A stretch of 24,796 bases of DNA. It comes from a virus (taxonomy: Duplodnaviria > Caudoviricetes). The notes under the pieces are model-generated. The model was not told where the DNA came from and did not search any database. It saw nothing but the letters and a program-made list of their open reading frames with translations. Shown one piece after another: positions 1,831-23,012 of this stretch. How positions within the stretch are numbered: the first letter of the stretch is position 1; each line of letters starts with the position of its first letter. The position numbers were made by a program, and so were the translations under genes. Location: positions 1 to 24,796 of the IMG/VR virus record IMGVR_UViG_3300010165_000005. One strand, given 5' to 3'.

Positions 1831-2255
1831 GTTTAGCAGACCGTTTAAAAGAAGATGTTTCTAAAAAGAAAATAGAACAGTCTTCAGAAGAAACATTGAG
1901 AAACACCTTTAATGAGGCTTCTTCTAAATTAATTAACCAATTCATGGCAGATGTTTTAAGTGGTTCAATAAAAATTGATGATGTAGGAGATTTATCCCGC
2001 TTATTTCAAATTTATATGAGTGTCAATGATATAAATGAAAACCAAGGAGCAGGAGGAACTTTACCTGAATTAAGTTCGGGGCAAAAAGAGTTGTTTGGTA
2101 ATCATATTGAAACCACAAAAACAGAAAATGAAGACGGCGAAGAAGAAGAAACAGTAAACTTGTCAGACTTAGAAGGATTGGAAGATGATAGTATAGATAA
2201 AATGTTACAAGATAGAGAATTAGAAATGAATAAAGAAAATGAAGGTGGTTTGTAG
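1827..2255 (+). CDS. putative terminase small subunit
   Basis: Immediately upstream of and overlapping terL; helical N-terminus and acidic C-terminus; function inferred from position. Confidence 0.5.
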   Translation: MSLADRLKEDVSKKKIEQSSEETLRNTFNEASSKLINQFMADVLSGSIKIDDVGDLSRLFQIYMSVNDINENQGAGGTLPELSSGQKELFGNHIETTKTENEDGEEEETVNLSDLEGLEDDSIDKMLQDRELEMNKENEGGL

Positions 2256-2594
2256 TGGGTAAAAAGGCGGAACAGATAGCAGGTATGGCAAGAGAAATGT
2301 TTGGTACAGAACAGATTACAGTGGAACAGCTTGCTTATATAACGGATATGTTAAAGCCTAGTACATACTTGTTAAAAAACCACCAAATTGATGGCAAGCC
2401 TATGACATTTATTGCTAAAGACCGTGCACATGCTATACAACACAGACCCTGGCAAATCGCAATAGTGAACGACCCGCACCCTAATATGGTGGTAATGAAG
2501 AGCCGTCAATTAGGGATTTCGGAATTAAATGTAGGTAAACTTTTACATTTTGTTGATACACATAGTTATGATGGCGTCCGGGCGTTATACGCTT
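2255..2594 (+). CDS. terL: terminase large subunit, exon 1
   Basis: HRPWQ motif and Walker A KSRQLGISE; ends TAC GCT T and joins TT CCC ACT of exon 2 to give ALYAFPTNDQM. Confidence 0.93.
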
Positions 2595-2640
2595 AGATGG
2601 GGAGAGCCTTTGTAGGGTAACCTACATTGAAAAACTCTAC

Positions 2641-2826
2641 TAAACGGGCATAGCAAAATAATAATCACAATAACAATATGCTGGTAAGAAAGACTAAGGG
2701 TGAGTGATTACACCTAGGGTTGACCTACCGTGCTAAATACGGTACATTATTCATTGTACTGTTAAAAGCCTAGAGACTAAATTTCTAGTTAGCTAACTAA
2801 ATGGAGTTAGTGAGAACTAGATAAAA
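2641..2826 (+). repeat. 186-bp exact direct repeat, copy 1 (intron core)
   Basis: Base-for-base identical to 5239-5424 by manual comparison. Confidence 0.95.
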
Positions 2827-2849
2827 GCTACTAAAGGAGGTGACAGTTT

Positions 2850-3767
2850 TTGGGAAAAAGCTTAACAGATGAAGAATTTAATAGAAGAGTAAACAAAGAT
2901 ACACAAGGAGATTACACATTTTTAGAGCCATATATAGGAAGACATAATAAAATTTTGTGCCGTCATAATACTTGTGGCTATGAATGGAAAGTAGAGCCTG
3001 GAGCATTTTTAGGAAATAAAAATAAAAAAGGGAGTAGATGCCCTTATTGTGAAGGGAACGCTCTTAAGACAACTGAACAATACAAAAAAGAAGTTAAAAA
3101 ACTAACAGAAAATTCTTATGAAGTATTAGGCTCTTATAAGAATTCTCATACAAAAATTAAAATGAAGCACAAAAGTTGTGGTACTATATATATGATTGAA
3201 CCTAACTCCTTTATGGGTGGTACTAGATGCCCTTTTTGTAACCCCACTAGACCTTATGACACAGAAAAAGCAAGAGTTGCTATACAAGGATTAGCAGACG
3301 GTAGTTATATATTGTCAGGGGGATGTAATGGATTTTATGAAGATATAGAAATTTTGCATAAAAAGTGCGGTAAGACTTTTACTTCTTCAATGATGAGAGC
3401 TAGAAGAGGGTTAATTTGCCCTTATTGTTTTAATAGGTCTAAAGGAGAGTTTTTTGTTAGAAATTACCTTGAAATAAATGGTTACCACTACGAGATACAG
3501 AAAAGATTCGAGGGTATTAAGAAGTTATCATACGATTTTTACTTACCCGAAGAAAATATTGTAATAGAATATCAAGGAGAACAACATTACAAGCCTGTTA
3601 AGTTATTCGGTGGAGAAGAATCGTTTGAAAGGCAAAAAAATATTGATAAAATGAAAAGAGACTATGCCGAAGATAAAGGTATAAATCTTGTTGAGATTAG
3701 CTATAAAAACAAAACCCAAACAGCTGTGTCCTCCGAGCTTGATTTAAAATTAAGCTTAGTAGTATAA
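2850..3767 (+). CDS. intron-encoded homing endonuclease: three HxxCG...CPxC zinc-finger repeats plus a C-terminal Vsr/DUF559-like nuclease
   Basis: AAAGGAGGTGA RBS; HNTCG..CPYC, HKSCG..CPFC, HKKCG..CPYC; YDFYLPEENIVIEYQGEQHY; lies inside intron 1. Confidence 0.85.
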   Translation: MGKSLTDEEFNRRVNKDTQGDYTFLEPYIGRHNKILCRHNTCGYEWKVEPGAFLGNKNKKGSRCPYCEGNALKTTEQYKKEVKKLTENSYEVLGSYKNSHTKIKMKHKSCGTIYMIEPNSFMGGTRCPFCNPTRPYDTEKARVAIQGLADGSYILSGGCNGFYEDIEILHKKCGKTFTSSMMRARRGLICPYCFNRSKGEFFVRNYLEINGYHYEIQKRFEGIKKLSYDFYLPEENIVIEYQGEQHYKPVKLFGGEESFERQKNIDKMKRDYAEDKGINLVEISYKNKTQTAVSSELDLKLSLVV

Positions 3768-3850
3768 CGTAGAGCATCCTTAACCAAAACTAAGGATGAT
3801 GATATAGTCCAACCCTTAAAAATACTATGAAAATAAAGTGGAACACTAGG

Positions 3851-5190
3851 TTCCCACTAACGACCAGATGCAAATCTTTACTCAATCCAGGTTAGACCCT
3901 GTGTTGAATAAAGGCTATTATTCAACAATTATAAATCCAGATTTAAATTCGATGAAATTAAAGCAAATACGGAACAGTTTTATTTACTTCCGTTCGAGTT
4001 CTAAACCAGGGGCATTAGAAGGGCTTGCTAACGATTATTTAATCCTAGATGAATATGACCGTGTACCGCAAGCAGCAGAAGCTTCAGCCCTAGAAGGGAT
4101 GTCCTCATCTCCTTATAAGATAACAAATAGGTTTAGTACTCCAAGTATTAACGACGTAGGTATCCATAAGTTGTTTAAGCAATCGGACCAAAATTATTAC
4201 ATGCATAAATGTCCACATTGTAACTATTACAACAAGATGAGCTTTGAGCCTTATGTACCTGAAGCTCCAGTTGAAAAAAGAGGAAATGTTTTAACGGTTA
4301 ACCCTCAAGGGGTAGACTTATCTGCTAAGACAGTCGTAGATGGCTCTTTCCAATATGTTTGTCAAAAATGTGGGAGACCTCTAGACAGATGGATGACTGG
4401 TGAATGGGTTCCTATGTATCCTGATAGAGCTAAGAATAACCAAGGTACAAGAGGGTATTATATTTCACAAATGAATGCCGTTTGGATAAGTTTAGATGAC
4501 CTTAAACGAAAAGAACTAACTGCTGAATCTAAACAGTTGTTCTACAACTATGTTATCGGAGAGCCGTTTATCGATGCCAAAATGACGGTTAATAAATCAG
4601 ATATCATGAATCACATTAGACCTGACCTAAATAAGCAACCGGAAAATAGACAAGGATATGCCTTTGTATCCGTAGGAGTGGATTTCGGTAACCAACACTC
4701 CATAACTATTCATGGTGTTCGTTCTAATGGAGTTGTAGATATGATTGCTAACTTCCAAGTGACCAAAGCAAATCCTTTAAACCCCGACTCTATCGGAACA
4801 GACATTCAAGCATTAAGAGTTAAATTGGCTCCTTATGACCCAGACATCATTGTAGCCGATATAGGAGATTCAGGAGATAAAATTGCTAAATTAATCCAAA
4901 TCTATGGGAAAGGCAAAGTGTACGGGTGTATTTATCCGTCCACACCTAAGTCAAGCGGCAATGTTATCCCTACTTGGTCGGAAAACAATAATACTGTTCG
5001 TGCAGATAAATTAATGCAGAATAAAAGATATATTGCAAAATTAAAAGAAGGTGAAATTGGTTTTGCTAGAGGTATGGATAAATCCTTAGAAGATTTTGTT
5101 TCTCATTGGAGCAACGTTGTTATTCGTGATGAGGAAGACAACAAATCTATAACAGGATTTGTTCAAAAGATTACTCGAAAGGGACCCGAT
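3851..5190 (+). CDS. terL: terminase large subunit, exon 2
   Basis: Walker B YLILDEYDR, FSTP coupling motif, CPHC/CQKC, nuclease GVDFG; ends RKGPD. Confidence 0.93.
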
Positions 5191-5238
5191 TAAGTGATGG
5201 TCGGCTTTATAAGGTAACTTATAATGACAAAACAGTGT

Positions 5239-7677: not shown

Positions 7678-8829
7678 ATGAGTCTTATGGAGCGACTAAA
7701 AGCATACAAATTCAGATTATATCCAACAGAAGAACAAGAAATTTTCTTTTCTAAGTCTTTTGGTTGTGTTCGTAAAGTTTATAATTTGATGTTAGATGAA
7801 CGCACCAAGGCGTATCAACAGTACAAATCAGACACGTCAAAACAAACTAAGTTACCGACACCTGCCAAGTACAAAAAAGACTATCCATTCTTAAAAGAAG
7901 TAGACAGTCTAGCTTTAGCCAATGCCCAGCAACATTTAGATAAAGCATACAAGAATTTCTTTCGGGATAAATCCATTGGATTTCCTCGTTTCAAGAGTAA
8001 GAAAAATCCTGTTCAGAGTTATACAACGAATAATCAAAATGGGACAGTTGCTTTGATTGATAATAGATTTATCAAAGTTCCTAAACTAAAATCCTTAATC
8101 AAAATTAAACTTCATAGACAGCCTAAAGGGATTATCAAATCTGCTACAATATCACGTCATTCTAGTGGTAAATACTATGTTTCTCTGTTATGCAAAGAAG
8201 AAGTTAACGAATTACCTAAGATGAAGTCTTCGATTGGTATTGACTTGGGTATTACTGACTTTGCAATTCTTTCTGACGGACAAAAAATTGATAATAATAA
8301 ATTCACGTCCAAAATGGAAAAGAAACTAAAACGTGAGCAACGCAAGTTATCTAGACGTGCATTATTAGCCAAACAGAAAGGTATCAATTTGTTTGAAGCT
8401 AAAAACTATCAAAAACAAAAACGAAAAGTAGCACGGTTACATGAAAAAGTAATGAATCAACGTACTGATTTTCTGAATAAGTTGAGTACGGAAATTATCA
8501 AAAACCACGATATTATCTGTATTGAAGACTTAAACATAAAAGGTATGTTGTGTAATCATAAATTAGCAAAAAGTATTTCTGATGTGTCTTGGTCTAGTTT
8601 TGTAACTAAATTACAATACAAGGCTGACTGGTATGGACGTGAAATTATCAAGGTAGATAAATGGTTTCCTTCTAGCCAAATTTGTTCAGAACGCGGACAC
8701 AAAGATGGTAAGAAATCTCTTGATATTCGAGAATGGACTTGCCCTATTTGTCATACTCAACACGACCGAGACATCAACGCTAGTATAAATATTTTGACCG
8801 ATGGTCTACGAATACAAGCATTGGCTTAG
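7678..8829 (+). CDS. tnpB: RNA-guided endonuclease TnpB
   Basis: KAYKFRLYPT N-terminus; RuvC GIDLG / IEDL / DRDINA; Zn ribbon CSERG..CPIC with one Cys lost; start may be ATG 7687. Confidence 0.95.
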   Translation: MSLMERLKAYKFRLYPTEEQEIFFSKSFGCVRKVYNLMLDERTKAYQQYKSDTSKQTKLPTPAKYKKDYPFLKEVDSLALANAQQHLDKAYKNFFRDKSIGFPRFKSKKNPVQSYTTNNQNGTVALIDNRFIKVPKLKSLIKIKLHRQPKGIIKSATISRHSSGKYYVSLLCKEEVNELPKMKSSIGIDLGITDFAILSDGQKIDNNKFTSKMEKKLKREQRKLSRRALLAKQKGINLFEAKNYQKQKRKVARLHEKVMNQRTDFLNKLSTEIIKNHDIICIEDLNIKGMLCNHKLAKSISDVSWSSFVTKLQYKADWYGREIIKVDKWFPSSQICSERGHKDGKKSLDIREWTCPICHTQHDRDINASINILTDGLRIQALA

Positions 8830-8840
8830 AAAGTATCAAG

Positions 8841-8986
8841 AACCGTAGGAACTACGGGGATAGCTTGGTAAATAAGAGACACCGCTGTGAGCAAAGAAAT
8901 ACGCTTGCAAGTACGCTCTATTCCCAAGAAGCTCCCACTTCAAGCGTTAAGAACCGTAAGGTTTAGCTAAGTGGTGAGTAGTTCAC
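8841..8986 (+). ncRNA. TnpB omegaRNA (reRNA) scaffold / IS right end
   Basis: CCGTAG/CTACGG hairpin, CTTGG..CCAAG pairing and terminal hairpin; predicted guide is the flank AAAGTTATTGACAAGA... Confidence 0.8.
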
Positions 8987-8993
8987 AAAGTTA

Positions 8994-9021
8994 TTGACAA
9001 GAATTGTAAATATGTTATAAT
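8994..9021 (+). promoter_or_regulatory. sigma-A-type promoter of the tRNA cluster
   Basis: TTGACA-16-TATAAT with an extended TG. Confidence 0.8.
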
Positions 9022-9321: not shown

Positions 9322-9367
9322 GCAATACCCCGTAAAGAGATACATTAGATAGAGTTACATAATTTCT

Positions 9368-9439
9368 AAGCCAATAGTTTAATCAGAAAAACATAGGTCT
9401 CCAAAACCTAAGAACAGGGAGCATAACCTTGTTGGCTTG
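9368..9439 (+). tRNA. tRNA-Trp (CCA), atypical T-loop
   Basis: AAGCCAA/TTGGCTT acceptor; TAGGT-CTCCAAA-ACCTA anticodon arm; CAGGG-AGCATAA-CCTTG T arm; no encoded 3' CCA. Confidence 0.85.
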
Positions 9440-9443
9440 TTAT

Positions 9444-9516
9444 TGAGATATAGTTCAGTTGGTAGAACGCTTGTCTGTTAAACAAGAAGTCACAGGTTCG
9501 AGTCCTGTTATCTCAG
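9444..9516 (+). tRNA. tRNA-Asn (GTT)
   Basis: Canonical cloverleaf: TGAGATA/TATCTCA, GTTC/GAAC, CTTGT-CTGTTAA-ACAAG, ACAGG-TTCGAGT-CCTGT. Confidence 0.95.
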
Positions 9517-9519
9517 TTT

Positions 9520-9602
9520 GGGAAAGTAGCCAAGATAAGACAAAGGCGGCGGACTGTAAATCCGTTCTTTCGGGTTCGTAGGTGCAAATCCTTCCTTTCC
9601 CA
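9520..9602 (+). tRNA. tRNA-Tyr (GTA)
   Basis: GGGAAAG/CTTTCCC acceptor; GCGGA-CTGTAAA-TCCGT; long variable arm; T-loop TGCAAAT. Confidence 0.92.
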
Positions 9603-9612
9603 TAACATTAAG

Positions 9613-9821
9613 TTGGGCTTATCAGGAGTGCGATAAGTTGCCTGAAGCAGGCTTTGTAAGCTGTCTTAGATAAATTTAAGAGGTTACACTGACCTCTATA
9701 AATATAGGAGTTTCTAAGTTAAATGCGTAGGACTCGGAGCTAGTCGCATAGCTTCCGCACTCAATACATAAAGCCAATCCCTCTACACCTTTCAAAGGAC
9801 AGTCATGTACTGACGTAGAGG
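9613..9821 (+). ncRNA. candidate structured ncRNA(s) of unknown family
   Basis: GC-enriched, no long ORF, many nested helices and a possible pseudoknot (see findings). Confidence 0.5.
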
Positions 9822-9923
9822 TTTTACATAAAATATATTGCTCTTGGAATAGCCTATTTTTTTTTATTCTTAAGTAAATTTACACCTAGAGGGTTTGACT
9901 CCCTCATATCCCTTTTACGGGAA

Positions 9924-9997
9924 GCTCTAGTTGAGTACTAATGACACGCCATGGCAACTTGGTCATTAGTAGACAGGTGCAAATCCTGTAGCAGAGC
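9924..9997 (+). ncRNA. tRNA-like RNA lacking a D arm
   Basis: Closing stem GCTCT(A)GTT/AGCAGAGC, 10-bp stem TACTAATGAC/GTCATTAGTA, T arm ACAGG-TGCAAAT-CCTGT. Confidence 0.6.
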
Positions 9998-10134
9998 GCT
10001 TGTTATTCTAGTTAACAAGAAAAGCCTCCCTTCCCATTAGAATTAAGTGAAACTTTTCGAAGTTTTAGTGGAGTATACCCACAGGCGTCTTCCTCTACAG
10101 AGAAGTAACTAGTTATATTGAGAGGAGGGAGCCT

Positions 10135-18175: not shown

Positions 18176-18323
18176 GTGTTAAGAGATGAATTTAAAGAAC
18201 TTAACGCAATGCCTAATCTGTGGACGAGAAGTTATTTTGTTTCAACTGCAGGTAATGTATCGAGTGAAACAATTAAACAATTAAACAATTAAACAATATG
18301 TAGAAAATCAAAGGAAGAGGTGA
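18176..18323 (+). pseudogene. tnpA: C-terminal fragment of a Y1 transposase with an 8-bp repeat expansion
   Basis: LRDEF..LWTRSYFVSTAGNVSSETIKQ then YVENQ in another frame; about 4 copies of AAACAATT at 18267-18297. Confidence 0.88.
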
Positions 18324-19405
18324 GAGAAGTGAGACAAGCCATGACAGTAAAAGTAAAACTTGAACCAAACAAAGCGCAATTGGAATTAATTAAGTCATCT
18401 TCACAAGCATATATTAATGCTATTAATACATTGGTAGACGAAATGGTTAAAGCACAGGCGCCCACTCAGAAAACAACTAAGCACATTGATGTACCTTTAA
18501 ATAGTAGCGTTAAAAATCAAGTGATTAGAGATGCTAAATCAGTGTTTAAGAAAGCTAAGAAGATTGAGTATAAAAAGGTACCCATTTTAAAGAAACCTAT
18601 TATTGTATGGAATAATCAAAACTATACGATTCATCATGCAAGCATAAAAGTGCCGTTTATTGTTGGTGGTAAGTCACAAAAAATTGAGATTAAAGCTCTC
18701 ATTTCAGACTATGAAAGAAACTTAATTGAATCAGCAAGCAAGTTAGGAACGTTGCGCATCACTCGAAAAGGCACTAAGTATGTAGCACAAATTGCCATTG
18801 AAACGGATGTGAAAGAACAAATAAATACAAAAGTAATGGGTATTGACTTAGGTATTAAGATACCTGCGGTGTGCTGTACAGATGAAAACAAAATAAAGTT
18901 TGTAGGTAATGGAAGAGAAAACAAATACATTAGACGAAAACACAATAGTAGGCGTAAGAAACTAGGTAAAGCCAAAAAATTAAAGGCTATCAAAAAGTCA
19001 CAGAATAAGGAACAACGTTGGATGAATGATAAAGACCACAAGATAAGTCGTGAAATAATCGACTTTGCTATTCAACACAATGTAGGAATAATTAGATTAG
19101 AGCAATTAGCGAATATTAGAAAACAGACAAGTAAAAGTCGTAAAAACAACCACTCATTAAGTAACTGGTCATTCTATAGATTGGCACAGTACATTGAGTA
19201 CAAAGCAAATTTAGTAGGTATTAAAGTAGAATATGTAGACCCTAAATACACAAGCCAACAATGTCCTAAATGTGCTGAAAGAAACAAAGCAAAAGATAGA
19301 CAGTACAAATGTTCTAACTGTGGTCACACAGACCATAGAGATATAGTCGGTGCTAAAAATATTATTCACGCACCTGTACTTGATGGTCATAGTCAAGTAG
19401 CCTAG
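18320..19405 (+). CDS. tnpB: RNA-guided endonuclease TnpB (second, divergent)
   Basis: RuvC GIDLG / RLEQL / HRDIVGAKNI; CPKC..CSNC Zn ribbon intact; start may be 18329 or 18341. Confidence 0.93.
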   Translation: MREVRQAMTVKVKLEPNKAQLELIKSSSQAYINAINTLVDEMVKAQAPTQKTTKHIDVPLNSSVKNQVIRDAKSVFKKAKKIEYKKVPILKKPIIVWNNQNYTIHHASIKVPFIVGGKSQKIEIKALISDYERNLIESASKLGTLRITRKGTKYVAQIAIETDVKEQINTKVMGIDLGIKIPAVCCTDENKIKFVGNGRENKYIRRKHNSRRKKLGKAKKLKAIKKSQNKEQRWMNDKDHKISREIIDFAIQHNVGIIRLEQLANIRKQTSKSRKNNHSLSNWSFYRLAQYIEYKANLVGIKVEYVDPKYTSQQCPKCAERNKAKDRQYKCSNCGHTDHRDIVGAKNIIHAPVLDGHSQVA

Positions 19406-20762: not shown

Positions 20763-23012
20763 ATGAAAGTAATGTATGTAACCGTAGGTGCGCCAGGATC
20801 TGGTAAGACCCACTTGGTAGATAATTCAGCGCTAAAAGAACTAGATAATATCCACTCCGACCGAGTAAGAGACTTGGTTGAGGGGTTTACTACAAAAGCT
20901 ACCAATGAAACAGGGGAAACTTTTAAGACTCACGATACTCGATTTGAGAAAAAGACTTGGTCGATTATTTGGGATTTAATTGAGCAACGAATGCAGGAGG
21001 GTAAAACTTTCTGCTTTGACTCCACGTTCTTGTCTAAGAAAAGTTTCTCAACATTAAAGAAACTAAGAGAAAAATATGGTTATCGAGTGTATGTTTTAGA
21101 CTTTACAGAGATGCCAATCGGTACTCTTGTCAGAAATAACAAGAGTGAAGAAAGAAAAGAAAATCATGCTGTTGTACCTGACAATGTAGTCATAGATATG
21201 CATGAACGAGCAATGAACACTCACTTTCCTTCTTGGGTAAATGTCATTGATTGTTCTGATAAAGAAGAAGCAAAAGCAGAAATTAAAAACTCCCTTATGT
21301 GGTTACACTCAGACGTAAACGAATATAACCAAGTAAAAATCATTGGGGATATACATGGTTCTGCTTCTGTCTTAGAAGAAAATGTTCTAAATGATGTAGA
21401 CCCAAGTACACTTTACATTTTATTAGGAGACTACTTAGACCGAGGAACAGAGAACGCCCGAACCTTTAAGCTACTTTATGAGCATTTGAATGATTCGAAC
21501 TTTGTGTTCTTAAGAGGAAATCATGACAAGCACCTAGAACGCTTTGTCCAAGGTCGAGATGTCCCTAATAAAGGAACGAAAGAGGAAACTATTCCGGCTT
21601 TATTAGAAGCGGGTGTTACCAAAAAAGACATCAAACGATTTACTAAAAAATTGCAAGATGTTTATATGTTCGACTTCAGAGGGCAAACCTATGTATGTAC
21701 CCATGCAGGGTTAACCGAAGAGGACAGTATGAATTTAACTGATGATTTTGGGGTAGACATTGACCAGTCTAACTTTGTGGATGGTGTAGGAAAGTACGAC
21801 TTTGACGTTGACTATTGGTACAATGATATAGCTAGTTATTTTTCTAATTCTACTATTCAATTCCATGGGCATAGAAACGCTTTTGATGTGGATATCGATG
21901 AATATGAAACTATCTACAACCTAGAACAAAAGGTTGAACGTGGAGGTCACTTAGCTGTAGCGACAATTGATGATAGAGGAGTTCATACTCATCTGCATAA
22001 GAATGACAATTTTGACATCCGTTACTTAGAATCAGACTTATCTACAGATATTTCTAAACTGGATAACAAGGATATTAAGTCTATCCTTGACCATTCTACA
22101 AATGTTATCACTAAAGAAGTAGAAGATAACCTCTATGCAAATAACTTTACCCGAAAAGTATTTTCTAAAGGAAACTTTAACAACTTTTCTATTCAAGCTC
22201 GTGGACTATTTACGAATGACGAAGGGGATGTTAAAGCTCGTGGATTTAAAAAGTTCTTTAACTTGAACCAAGTATCTGAAACTGAAGAACAAGAAGTGTT
22301 GAAACATCCTTTACCAGCTAGAGTTTCTGAAAAAATAGATGGTTTTCTAGTTATCCTTACAGGAATTGATGGAGAACTTAAAGTATTGTCCAAAGGTGGA
22401 GATAAGAAATTTGGCAAAGAAGCTCGACGAATCCTTAAGAATAATGCTAGTAAAACAGAAGAAGAGCTAGCCTACTATTTGGAAAGTAACAATTTGTCCG
22501 TTACCTGTGAAGTTGTCTCTCACAAGGATTCTCATGTTATTGAGTACCCTGAGGAGAATATCTATGTACTAGATGCGATTTACAATGAGTACACAGAGGA
22601 CGCAAATTTTGAAGTAGCTAAAGAGTTTTCGACATATTCTGGATTAGCAATGCCTAGATACCAATATGTGGACAACAAAGAAGAACTTAAGTTATTTATT
22701 GAAAAGGAAAAGAATAACATGAGTCCTCATTTTGAAGGCTCAGTCCTTACTTTTGCTGATGGATTTCGAGTGAAGATTAAAACTCGTCACTACTTCCAGA
22801 TGAAGTTCCTTTTAAATGAGATTGGGAAGAAAAGAAAATTTTCTGATTATGTGTTTTATAATGGTAGAGATTACGTGTCTGAAAATGAAGCTTCCAAAAT
22901 AAATAAAATTCTTCAAAGAGTTCATTTTGGGGACGACTACAAGAAAACTAAAATGGGATTTGAAGATAATAAAGCTACAAAGGAAAGGTATGGTATAAAA
23001 GATGTTTGGTAA
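20763..23012 (+). CDS. trifunctional RNA-repair enzyme: polynucleotide kinase, metallophosphoesterase and RNA ligase (Pnkp/Rnl1-like)
   Basis: P-loop GAPGSGKT; GDIHG, LGDYLDRG, RGNHD, THAG, HGH; ligase KIDG, TCEVV, EGSV, RVKIK. Confidence 0.92.
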   Translation: MKVMYVTVGAPGSGKTHLVDNSALKELDNIHSDRVRDLVEGFTTKATNETGETFKTHDTRFEKKTWSIIWDLIEQRMQEGKTFCFDSTFLSKKSFSTLKKLREKYGYRVYVLDFTEMPIGTLVRNNKSEERKENHAVVPDNVVIDMHERAMNTHFPSWVNVIDCSDKEEAKAEIKNSLMWLHSDVNEYNQVKIIGDIHGSASVLEENVLNDVDPSTLYILLGDYLDRGTENARTFKLLYEHLNDSNFVFLRGNHDKHLERFVQGRDVPNKGTKEETIPALLEAGVTKKDIKRFTKKLQDVYMFDFRGQTYVCTHAGLTEEDSMNLTDDFGVDIDQSNFVDGVGKYDFDVDYWYNDIASYFSNSTIQFHGHRNAFDVDIDEYETIYNLEQKVERGGHLAVATIDDRGVHTHLHKNDNFDIRYLESDLSTDISKLDNKDIKSILDHSTNVITKEVEDNLYANNFTRKVFSKGNFNNFSIQARGLFTNDEGDVKARGFKKFFNLNQVSETEEQEVLKHPLPARVSEKIDGFLVILTGIDGELKVLSKGGDKKFGKEARRILKNNASKTEEELAYYLESNNLSVTCEVVSHKDSHVIEYPEENIYVLDAIYNEYTEDANFEVAKEFSTYSGLAMPRYQYVDNKEELKLFIEKEKNNMSPHFEGSVLTFADGFRVKIKTRHYFQMKFLLNEIGKKRKFSDYVFYNGRDYVSENEASKINKILQRVHFGDDYKKTKMGFEDNKATKERYGIKDVW

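Follow-up and report, generated by a model that had tools for sequence, protein, structure and literature searches.

The window, meaning the whole 24.8-kb stretch of virus DNA that was analyzed (a genome fragment), encodes at positions 9604-9762 a pseudoknotted RNA that is probably an orphan mimic of an RNA antitoxin, carried in a phage non-coding operon. This reading is based on the fold of the RNA, its homology in both directions with RNAs located upstream of PBECR4 genes, the layout of these gene cassettes, the lack of a PBECR4 gene in the window, the repeated occurrence of orphan copies in unrelated phages, and an adjacent second orphan linked to Abi_2 genes. The finding is likely one of phage mimicry of an RNA antitoxin, pointing to an undescribed toxin-RNA family.

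In the proposed mechanism, PBECR4 would be a toxic host RNase, and the RNA encoded upstream of it would bind and thereby neutralize it, like the antitoxins of type III systems. The phage operon would be transcribed from the promoter at 8994-9021, and its antitoxin-like RNA (module A) would have its 5' end freed by tRNA processing and its 3' end by a MazF-type cut at UACAUA. The free RNA would titrate the host toxin, so that abortive infection would be prevented or the cassette of a resident prophage cancelled. If the mimic reading is true, the stolen antidote would disarm a previously unrecognized bacterial defence.

Phage window and non-coding operon

The terminase large subunit was encoded in two pieces flanking an HNH endonuclease gene, and displayed 67% identity to those of large Enterococcus phages, e.g., EFDG1, which we take to be Herelleviridae. 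The split gene with its HNH insert (2255-5193, + strand) suggests an intron; Rfam at gathering score reported none. A prophage-like copy in Tetragenococcus halophilus was 98% identical to module A of the window, and at least half of the sampled window words were present in 19 of the 24 listed sequencing runs, mostly from food or plant metagenomes; together these matches point to Tetragenococcus as the putative host.

The operon ran from a promoter through three tRNAs, module A and a second RNA (module B) to tRNA-like units and a WDGH-domain gene. Its features were as follows (all on the + strand):

8994-9021: promoter of sigma-70/sigma-A type (12/12 perfect, extended -10) heading the non-coding operon, presumably in use
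9367-9603: tRNA-Trp, tRNA-Asn and tRNA-Tyr
9604-9762: module A, an orphan pseudoknotted RNA related to rli62/Bacilli-1 and to RNAs 5' of PBECR4 genes
9604-9616: single-stranded 5' leader of module A, near-invariant in Enterococcaceae orphans and unconserved in toxin-linked copies
9617-9638: P1 hairpin of 7 bp (9617-9623/9632-9638), with an 8-nt loop holding the pseudoknot 5' strand (9626-9631)
9640-9652: P2 hairpin (pairs 9640-9644/9648-9652), with the best sequence conservation of any family feature
9665-9718: P3 arm, optional and length-variable, which short toxin-linked copies and 5 of the 19 aligned orphans lack
9736-9756: P4 hairpin (pairs 9736-9742/9749-9756), its pairing preserved despite sequence variation
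9757-9762: pseudoknot 3' strand, partner of 9626-9631
9765-9770: UACAUA linker after module A, a predicted processing site
9771-9825: module B, an orphan three-way-junction RNA and predicted second antitoxin mimic
9825-9830: second UACAUA linker, after module B
9838-9865: degenerate terminator-like hairpin with T run

Module A began at the 3' end of tRNA-Tyr, so its 5' end would be released when the 3' end of the tRNA is processed, and many other orphan copies also sat after a tRNA or tRNA-like unit. The terminator scan made no call for the terminator-like hairpin of the window, and a longer stem was found at this hairpin in a prophage copy (L009).

Downstream, a tRNA-like element at 9923-9999 (+) showed an acceptor-like stem, a long arm and a T arm without a D arm, and was called by neither ARAGORN nor Rfam; its 15-nt loop region reappeared within another hairpin in prophage L011. 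An isolated T-arm-like hairpin (9884-9905, +) and a folded sequence (10021-10134, +) before the WDGH gene are possibly extra array modules. Elsewhere in the window, a TnpB (IS605 OrfB/Cas12f-like) gene lay within 7678-8968 (+); the structured right end behind it weakly matched Ref70 and is likely the guide-scaffold RNA of TnpB. A second transposase-like gene was located at 18320-19405. A 749-residue kinase/phosphatase/RNA-ligase protein (20763-23012, +) is an RNA repair enzyme, which fits a conflict between phage and host ribonucleases.

Fold and covariation of module A

Comparison among copies indicated that module A is a real four-helix RNA whose P1 loop pairs with its own 3' end. All motifs quoted in a first-pass annotation of this DNA were found where it had placed them, and its proposal of a structured, pseudoknotted phage non-coding RNA was borne out by covariation in the orphan, toxin-linked and 41-member sets. 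The fold energy of 9613-9777 was better than that of 200 out of 200 shuffles (z -3.44). Across P1, P2, P3, P4 and the pseudoknot, 98.8% of cells were paired in 19 orphan copies, compared with 32-42% in slid controls. Both sides had changed at 11 of the 28 pairs, a count reached by none of 500 shuffles, although this figure is not a probability, the structure having been worked out from these same, mutually related copies. For the 17 aligned toxin-linked RNAs, four rows of which were misaligned in P1, both-side changes were found at 17 of 22 pairs (0 of 500 shuffles matched this). A rule-based check, with ends picked by the analyst, covered 21 gene-linked and 20 orphan members; in 38 of these 41 the pseudoknot had 5 or more Watson-Crick pairs, against 25% of cross-pairings.

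This pseudoknot, previously placed at 9626-9632/9756-9762, was confirmed by comparison as 9626-9631/9757-9762. It took different sequence forms in cassettes (GGUAC/GUACC, UUGGCAG/CUGCCAA, AAGCAC/GUGCUU and GGGAAG/CUUCCC), and the form of the window, GAGUGC/GCACUC, was also found in two of them (L105 and L106). Sequence conservation was sparse throughout the family (4 invariant columns among the 17 toxin-linked members), single RNAs measured about 95-160 nt, and the family order of P1, loop-to-3'-end pseudoknot, P2 and P4 was present in the window element. Another helix proposed earlier, 9650-9658/9765-9775, was not conserved. Among 20 loci it reached a strong -8 to -11 kcal/mol in just 3, all of Tetragenococcus type with module B directly after module A. 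The helix is in competition with P2, and the leader that is conserved in module B supplies its 3' strand. The RNA first delimited at 9613-9777 was real but wrongly bounded, since it encompassed most of module A (about 9604-9762) and the beginning of the separate module B (9771-9825).

A self-cleaving ribozyme that frees the tRNA 3' end had also been suggested. The position of the element at the 3' end of tRNA-Tyr, the many orphans that follow tRNA-like units and the presence of a pseudoknot would agree with it, but we consider it extremely improbable: no Rfam ribozyme was matched, few nucleotides were invariant, and toxin-linked copies had their own promoter and terminator in a home context upstream of one protein family. 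HDV-like and theta ribozymes form a nested double pseudoknot, with P3 and P1.1 within the P1 loop. The 8-nt P1 loop of module A leaves no room for these nested helices. The theta/HDV-like ribozymes, ROOL and GOLLD all differ from module A in topology and size, with no Rfam match, although ROOL and GOLLD share with it a location in phage tRNA clusters (PMC5737381). For other motifs, Weinberg et al. took a 3' terminator and an association with a single protein as arguments against self-cleavage (PMC5737381). RNase P, SRP Alu, glmS, pistol, hatchet and raiA were also considered and set aside because none was matched in Rfam.

Related RNAs upstream of PBECR4 genes

A covariance model built from orphan copies (R1) gave matches in 8 of 134 Enterococcaceae genomes, seven of them within prophage-like RNA arrays or late regions. 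One match (L076) had its own promoter and terminator and was located 5' of a gene for a 183-residue PBECR4 protein adjoining a helicase. Relatives of this protein were encoded in 18 of 401 Lactobacillales genomes, and in 18 of 18 loci the RNA lay between a promoter and the PBECR4-like (BECR nuclease) gene. An upstream RNA was also found in all three PBECR4-carrying phage records inspected, and all 17 tested proteins from PBECR4 loci passed the cut-off of Pfam family PF18813.

Homology was shown in both directions, since the orphan-trained R1 detected 8 of the 18 cassettes (E < 0.05) and a covariance model built from gene-linked RNAs only (R3) found the window copy. The best R3 match in the window covered 9614-9766 (34.4 bits, E 2.4e-7, covariance-model E-values being rough), with the next match at 10.6 bits. 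R3 detected 12 of 24 orphan-set loci at E <= 0.015; with default filters it missed 11 of the 24 (one of which was a chance locus) and gave only a partial match at one further locus. The R3 search of Bacilli genomes was insensitive, finding 1 of 151 and missing the known copy of one T. halophilus genome (G001).

The cassettes spanned about 0.9 kb and consisted of a promoter, the RNA, a terminator and the predicted toxin gene, with a single RNA copy in each of 18 upstream regions and one R3 match in each of 4 more gene-linked loci. Type III loci likewise comprise one promoter, a pseudoknotted RNA, a terminator and an endoribonuclease gene (PMC5086642), and the PBECR4 cassette shares this order with ToxIN, CptIN and TenpIN. 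It differs from them by a single four-helix RNA in place of tandem short antitoxin repeats (PMC5086642), a difference that we count against the mimic reading, and may also differ in its protein, labelled BECR type by Pfam where theirs is MazF/Kid-like. Also counted against it were a cassette with a TGA within the gene and an intact RNA (L104), and the lack of PADLOC matches for five PBECR4 proteins.

The Pfam label and the invariant His52 and Arg96 suggest a nuclease activity for PBECR4 proteins, which would make PBECR4 a toxic RNase. The AlphaFold model was confident (pLDDT 93). With this model as query, no Foldseek match reached E <= 0.001 and no VIA-align match reached Z >= 5; RelE, BrnT and CdiA-CT chains came up only at Z of about 3 amid unrelated rows. 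No solved structure related by sequence was found, and an Atlas search with PBECR4 returned PBECR4 clusters only. PBECR4 genes were carried by 31 phage records and, in the three inspected, were located after the lysis genes or near the record end. Accessory defence genes are commonly found at such sites. In the openly readable literature, PBECR4 appeared in passing annotation only, with no functional study found, and the article texts searched there yielded no description of the RNA and PBECR4 as a pair.

The RNA and PBECR4 could instead form a ribonucleoprotein with another job, such as a scaffolded or guided nuclease or prophage maintenance, orphans then recruiting or redirecting the host protein. 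The tight one-to-one linkage of RNA and gene, an RNA larger and more elaborate than known type III antitoxins, and a variable P3 arm that could carry specificity are consistent with such a role, and AbiF ribonucleoproteins have been described as Cas13 ancestors (PMC12373285). We judge it distinctly unlikely, as P3 was missing from many members and self-paired where present, and the operon layout is that of an antitoxin.

Rfam relatives

The Rfam search recommended with the first-pass annotation returned only tRNAs in the window and nothing for the element, even at E <= 10. The novelty claim of that annotation held for the window copy, which no Rfam family matched, but not for the toxin-linked relatives, which matched rli62 and Bacilli-1. 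In phage A500, rli62 (RF01486) scored 142.5 bits directly 5' of the PBECR4-like gp26 and overlapped an R3 match. This RNA has been detected as a Listeria prophage sRNA (PMC3556495, PMC3105390), and neither a function nor a toxin link was given in the portions of the rli62 literature examined. Of 17 toxin-linked loci scanned, 5 scored above the gathering threshold of Bacilli-1 (RF02931), as did L110. The RF01486 model ends short of the pseudoknot 3' strand. RF02931, a 65-nt fragment lacking P4 and the pseudoknot, takes in P1, P2 and the 5' hairpin of the long subtype. The window element matched neither model at gathering score, and gave no hit even at E <= 10. By these matches, toxin-linked members are already partly catalogued as rli62 and Bacilli-1, without the pseudoknot.

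Distribution of orphan copies

Pattern scans retrieved module A in other phage contexts with unrelated flanks. Further scans gave 26 of 27 IMG/VR matches (overlapping the earlier ones, one chance match being dropped) and 6 metagenome matches, and the limits of the module, 9604-9762, were set from all these copies. A first metagenome scan had given none, no genuine match came from phage and plasmid records searched by BLAST with the window element, and terminase relatives (L002-L008) did not carry module A. Chance pattern matches were discarded (4 of 5 in one scan, L051 in another, and in a third L086 and L087, both weak and one lying within an ORF).

A PBECR4 profile detected the gene in all 19 cassette loci, but neither in the window nor in any of 23 orphan loci with flanks of up to 1.5 kb, the window result applying to this 24.8-kb fragment of the phage genome. 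Run without a positive control, the profile detected no PBECR4 gene in five orphan-bearing viral records (three at least 90% complete) or in five genomes. No PBECR4 match was obtained in the one T. halophilus genome searched (G001), which we count against the mimic reading, as we do the fragmentary state of the window and the loci missed by R3. A second pattern retrieved 82 viral loci, mostly staphylococcal prophage-like by sequence, of which 31 had a PBECR4 gene downstream and 51 had none, some of the latter having less than 500 bases of downstream flank.

Orphans were distributed among a myophage tRNA operon, siphophage late regions, a second large-phage tRNA cluster and phage phi12, and similar DNA was present in 215 records of Staphylococcus phages, phi12 and 80alpha among them. 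The idea is directly testable, because homologous DNA occurs in these two model phages and the cassettes are only about 0.9 kb. In phi12 (L199:716-808), the orphan lay 15 nt 3' of SprX, in the S. aureus sprY-sprX2 sRNA cluster, and is possibly already catalogued as an sRNA under another name. SprY, described about 50 bp upstream of sprX2 (PMC8501977), was rejected as that name, since the homolog starts 15 nt downstream of SprX.

A related phage contig (run X8, loose end at window position 9609) carried a different P1/loop allele, similar to the streptococcal cassette type, in the same slot after tRNA-Tyr, which suggests that specificities are exchangeable. A single contig from an RNA library, 14 kb long, gave no indication of expression. 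Truncated array members, one retaining module B alone (L012, 960-1030) and one lacking the P1 of module A (L075), indicate that modules are gained and lost separately. In the Tetragenococcus prophage, a structured RNA of about 230 nt with a tRNA-like stack at its end was located immediately 5' of module A (L009:1660-1890, - strand) and matched no Rfam family.

The RNA might alternatively be a cis leader of PBECR4 (an attenuator or a protein-bound feedback site), orphans being leftovers of gene loss or decoy operators that would alter how the gene is expressed and not inhibit the enzyme. In every case the RNA lay 5' of the gene, with a terminator or T run after it, and the cassettes with a T run after the pseudoknot but no separate terminator hairpin also fit a leader or attenuator, which counts against the mimic reading. 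Rfam classes rli62 as cis-regulatory, staphylococcal prophage orphans were nearly identical to gene-linked copies and held similar positions, as expected from gene loss, and abiF transcription is also repressed by its upstream RNA, RCd22 (PMC12373285). Against this, Enterococcaceae orphans have relocated to tRNA and non-coding RNA operons with pairing kept through sequence change, the 98.8% pairing would be unexpected for a pure remnant, and informal inspection of the alignments made no alternative terminator/antiterminator fold evident. We regard the leader as rather unlikely.

A precedent for an antitoxin mimic is the pseudo-ToxI of phage phiTE, a phage-borne, toxin-less RNA copy (PMC3475682). 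Both are RNAs without a toxin gene; the orphans described here differ in being natural, widespread and arrayed with other modules. They point to natural, widespread RNA-based counter-defence, of which, to our knowledge, few cases are documented (phiTE pseudo-ToxI and RNA anti-CRISPRs).

Module B and its link to Abi_2 genes

Module B was found between a promoter and an Abi_2 (AbiD/AbiF) gene in L027/L028/L030, L082 and L083, and 5' of an Abi_2 gene in 4 of 5 new loci, the exception being the most distant protein; PADLOC labelled the linked genes AbiD. In the window and in several prophage arrays it was an orphan. [quoted passage not shown] It differs from the AbiF RNA by its three-way junction and its orphan state in the window, and did not match the Rfam abiF motif (RF03085). 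That two orphans lie side by side, and that each traces to a different predicted nuclease gene, is the strongest sign of a common purpose.

UACAUA linkers and MazF

UACAUA is the MazF cut site in B. subtilis, S. aureus and L. monocytogenes (bioRxiv 10.64898/2026.08.06.743204, in whose available text Enterococcus goes unmentioned). In 20 related loci, the 6,200 nt that follow the module start held 26 copies of it and the 33,438 nt of flanks 8; on the other strand the corresponding counts were 0 and 17. The 1.1-kb operon of the window contained 3 sense copies, and the rest of the plus-strand region 3 sense versus 18 antisense (binomial p 0.0015).

Of the 11 cassette genomes that had a close MazF match, 6 had the site after the RNA, compared with none of the 7 that lacked such a match (Fisher p 0.025, the genomes not being independent); among the 11, one MazF had an internal stop and one cassette's site fell past the terminator. 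It was absent from 12 of 18 cassettes, and is thus not essential. The mazF gene of T. halophilus was located after acpS-alr, directly after alr in L067:1441-1866, with no mazE-sized ORF (at least 60 residues) between. With UACAUA at the module boundary and a mazF gene in the putative host, MazF is predicted to process the RNA at this site, if the Enterococcaceae enzyme shares the specificity of the other Gram-positive ones. The toxin link, module B and the UACAUA linkers are additions to the first-pass annotation.

The element could also serve the tRNA operon in general as a decoy or stability module, e.g., a sacrificial substrate of MazF or of an anticodon nuclease, independent of PBECR4. Its location among tRNAs and tRNA-like units, the concentration of UACAUA in the operon and its avoidance in mRNA, and the kinase/phosphatase/RNA-ligase protein encoded in the window would all suit such a module. 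It would leave the 18 of 18 linkage to PBECR4 and the parallel Abi_2-linked module unexplained, and we hold it to be very unlikely.

Wider reading and other array modules

A broader reading, which we advance tentatively and consider possible but doubtful as a whole, is that PBECR4 and the four-helix pseudoknot RNA form an undescribed anti-phage RNA-antitoxin class of Bacilli, to which phages respond with antidote libraries. The catalogued rli62 and Bacilli-1 would thereby gain a function, Enterococcaceae and Staphylococcus phage operons would hold stolen RNA antitoxins together with tRNA-like decoys, and host MazF would cut the arrays at UACAUA, one toxin freeing the antidotes to others. The mimic reading itself predicts a new toxin-antitoxin family around the PBECR4 nuclease domain and a function for the two catalogued sRNAs. 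It also offers a search rule, by which orphan RNAs in phage arrays lead to undiscovered defence systems, and which worked for both modules considered here.

Other shuffled RNA modules without Rfam match recurred in Enterococcus prophage arrays after an ArpU-like gene, and each of them may trace back to another defence system. Regions with such modules were L026, L031, L038, L042, L044, L056, L072-L074 and L084, and the Enterococcus modules included tRNA-like units whose anticodon arms were replaced by large ones.
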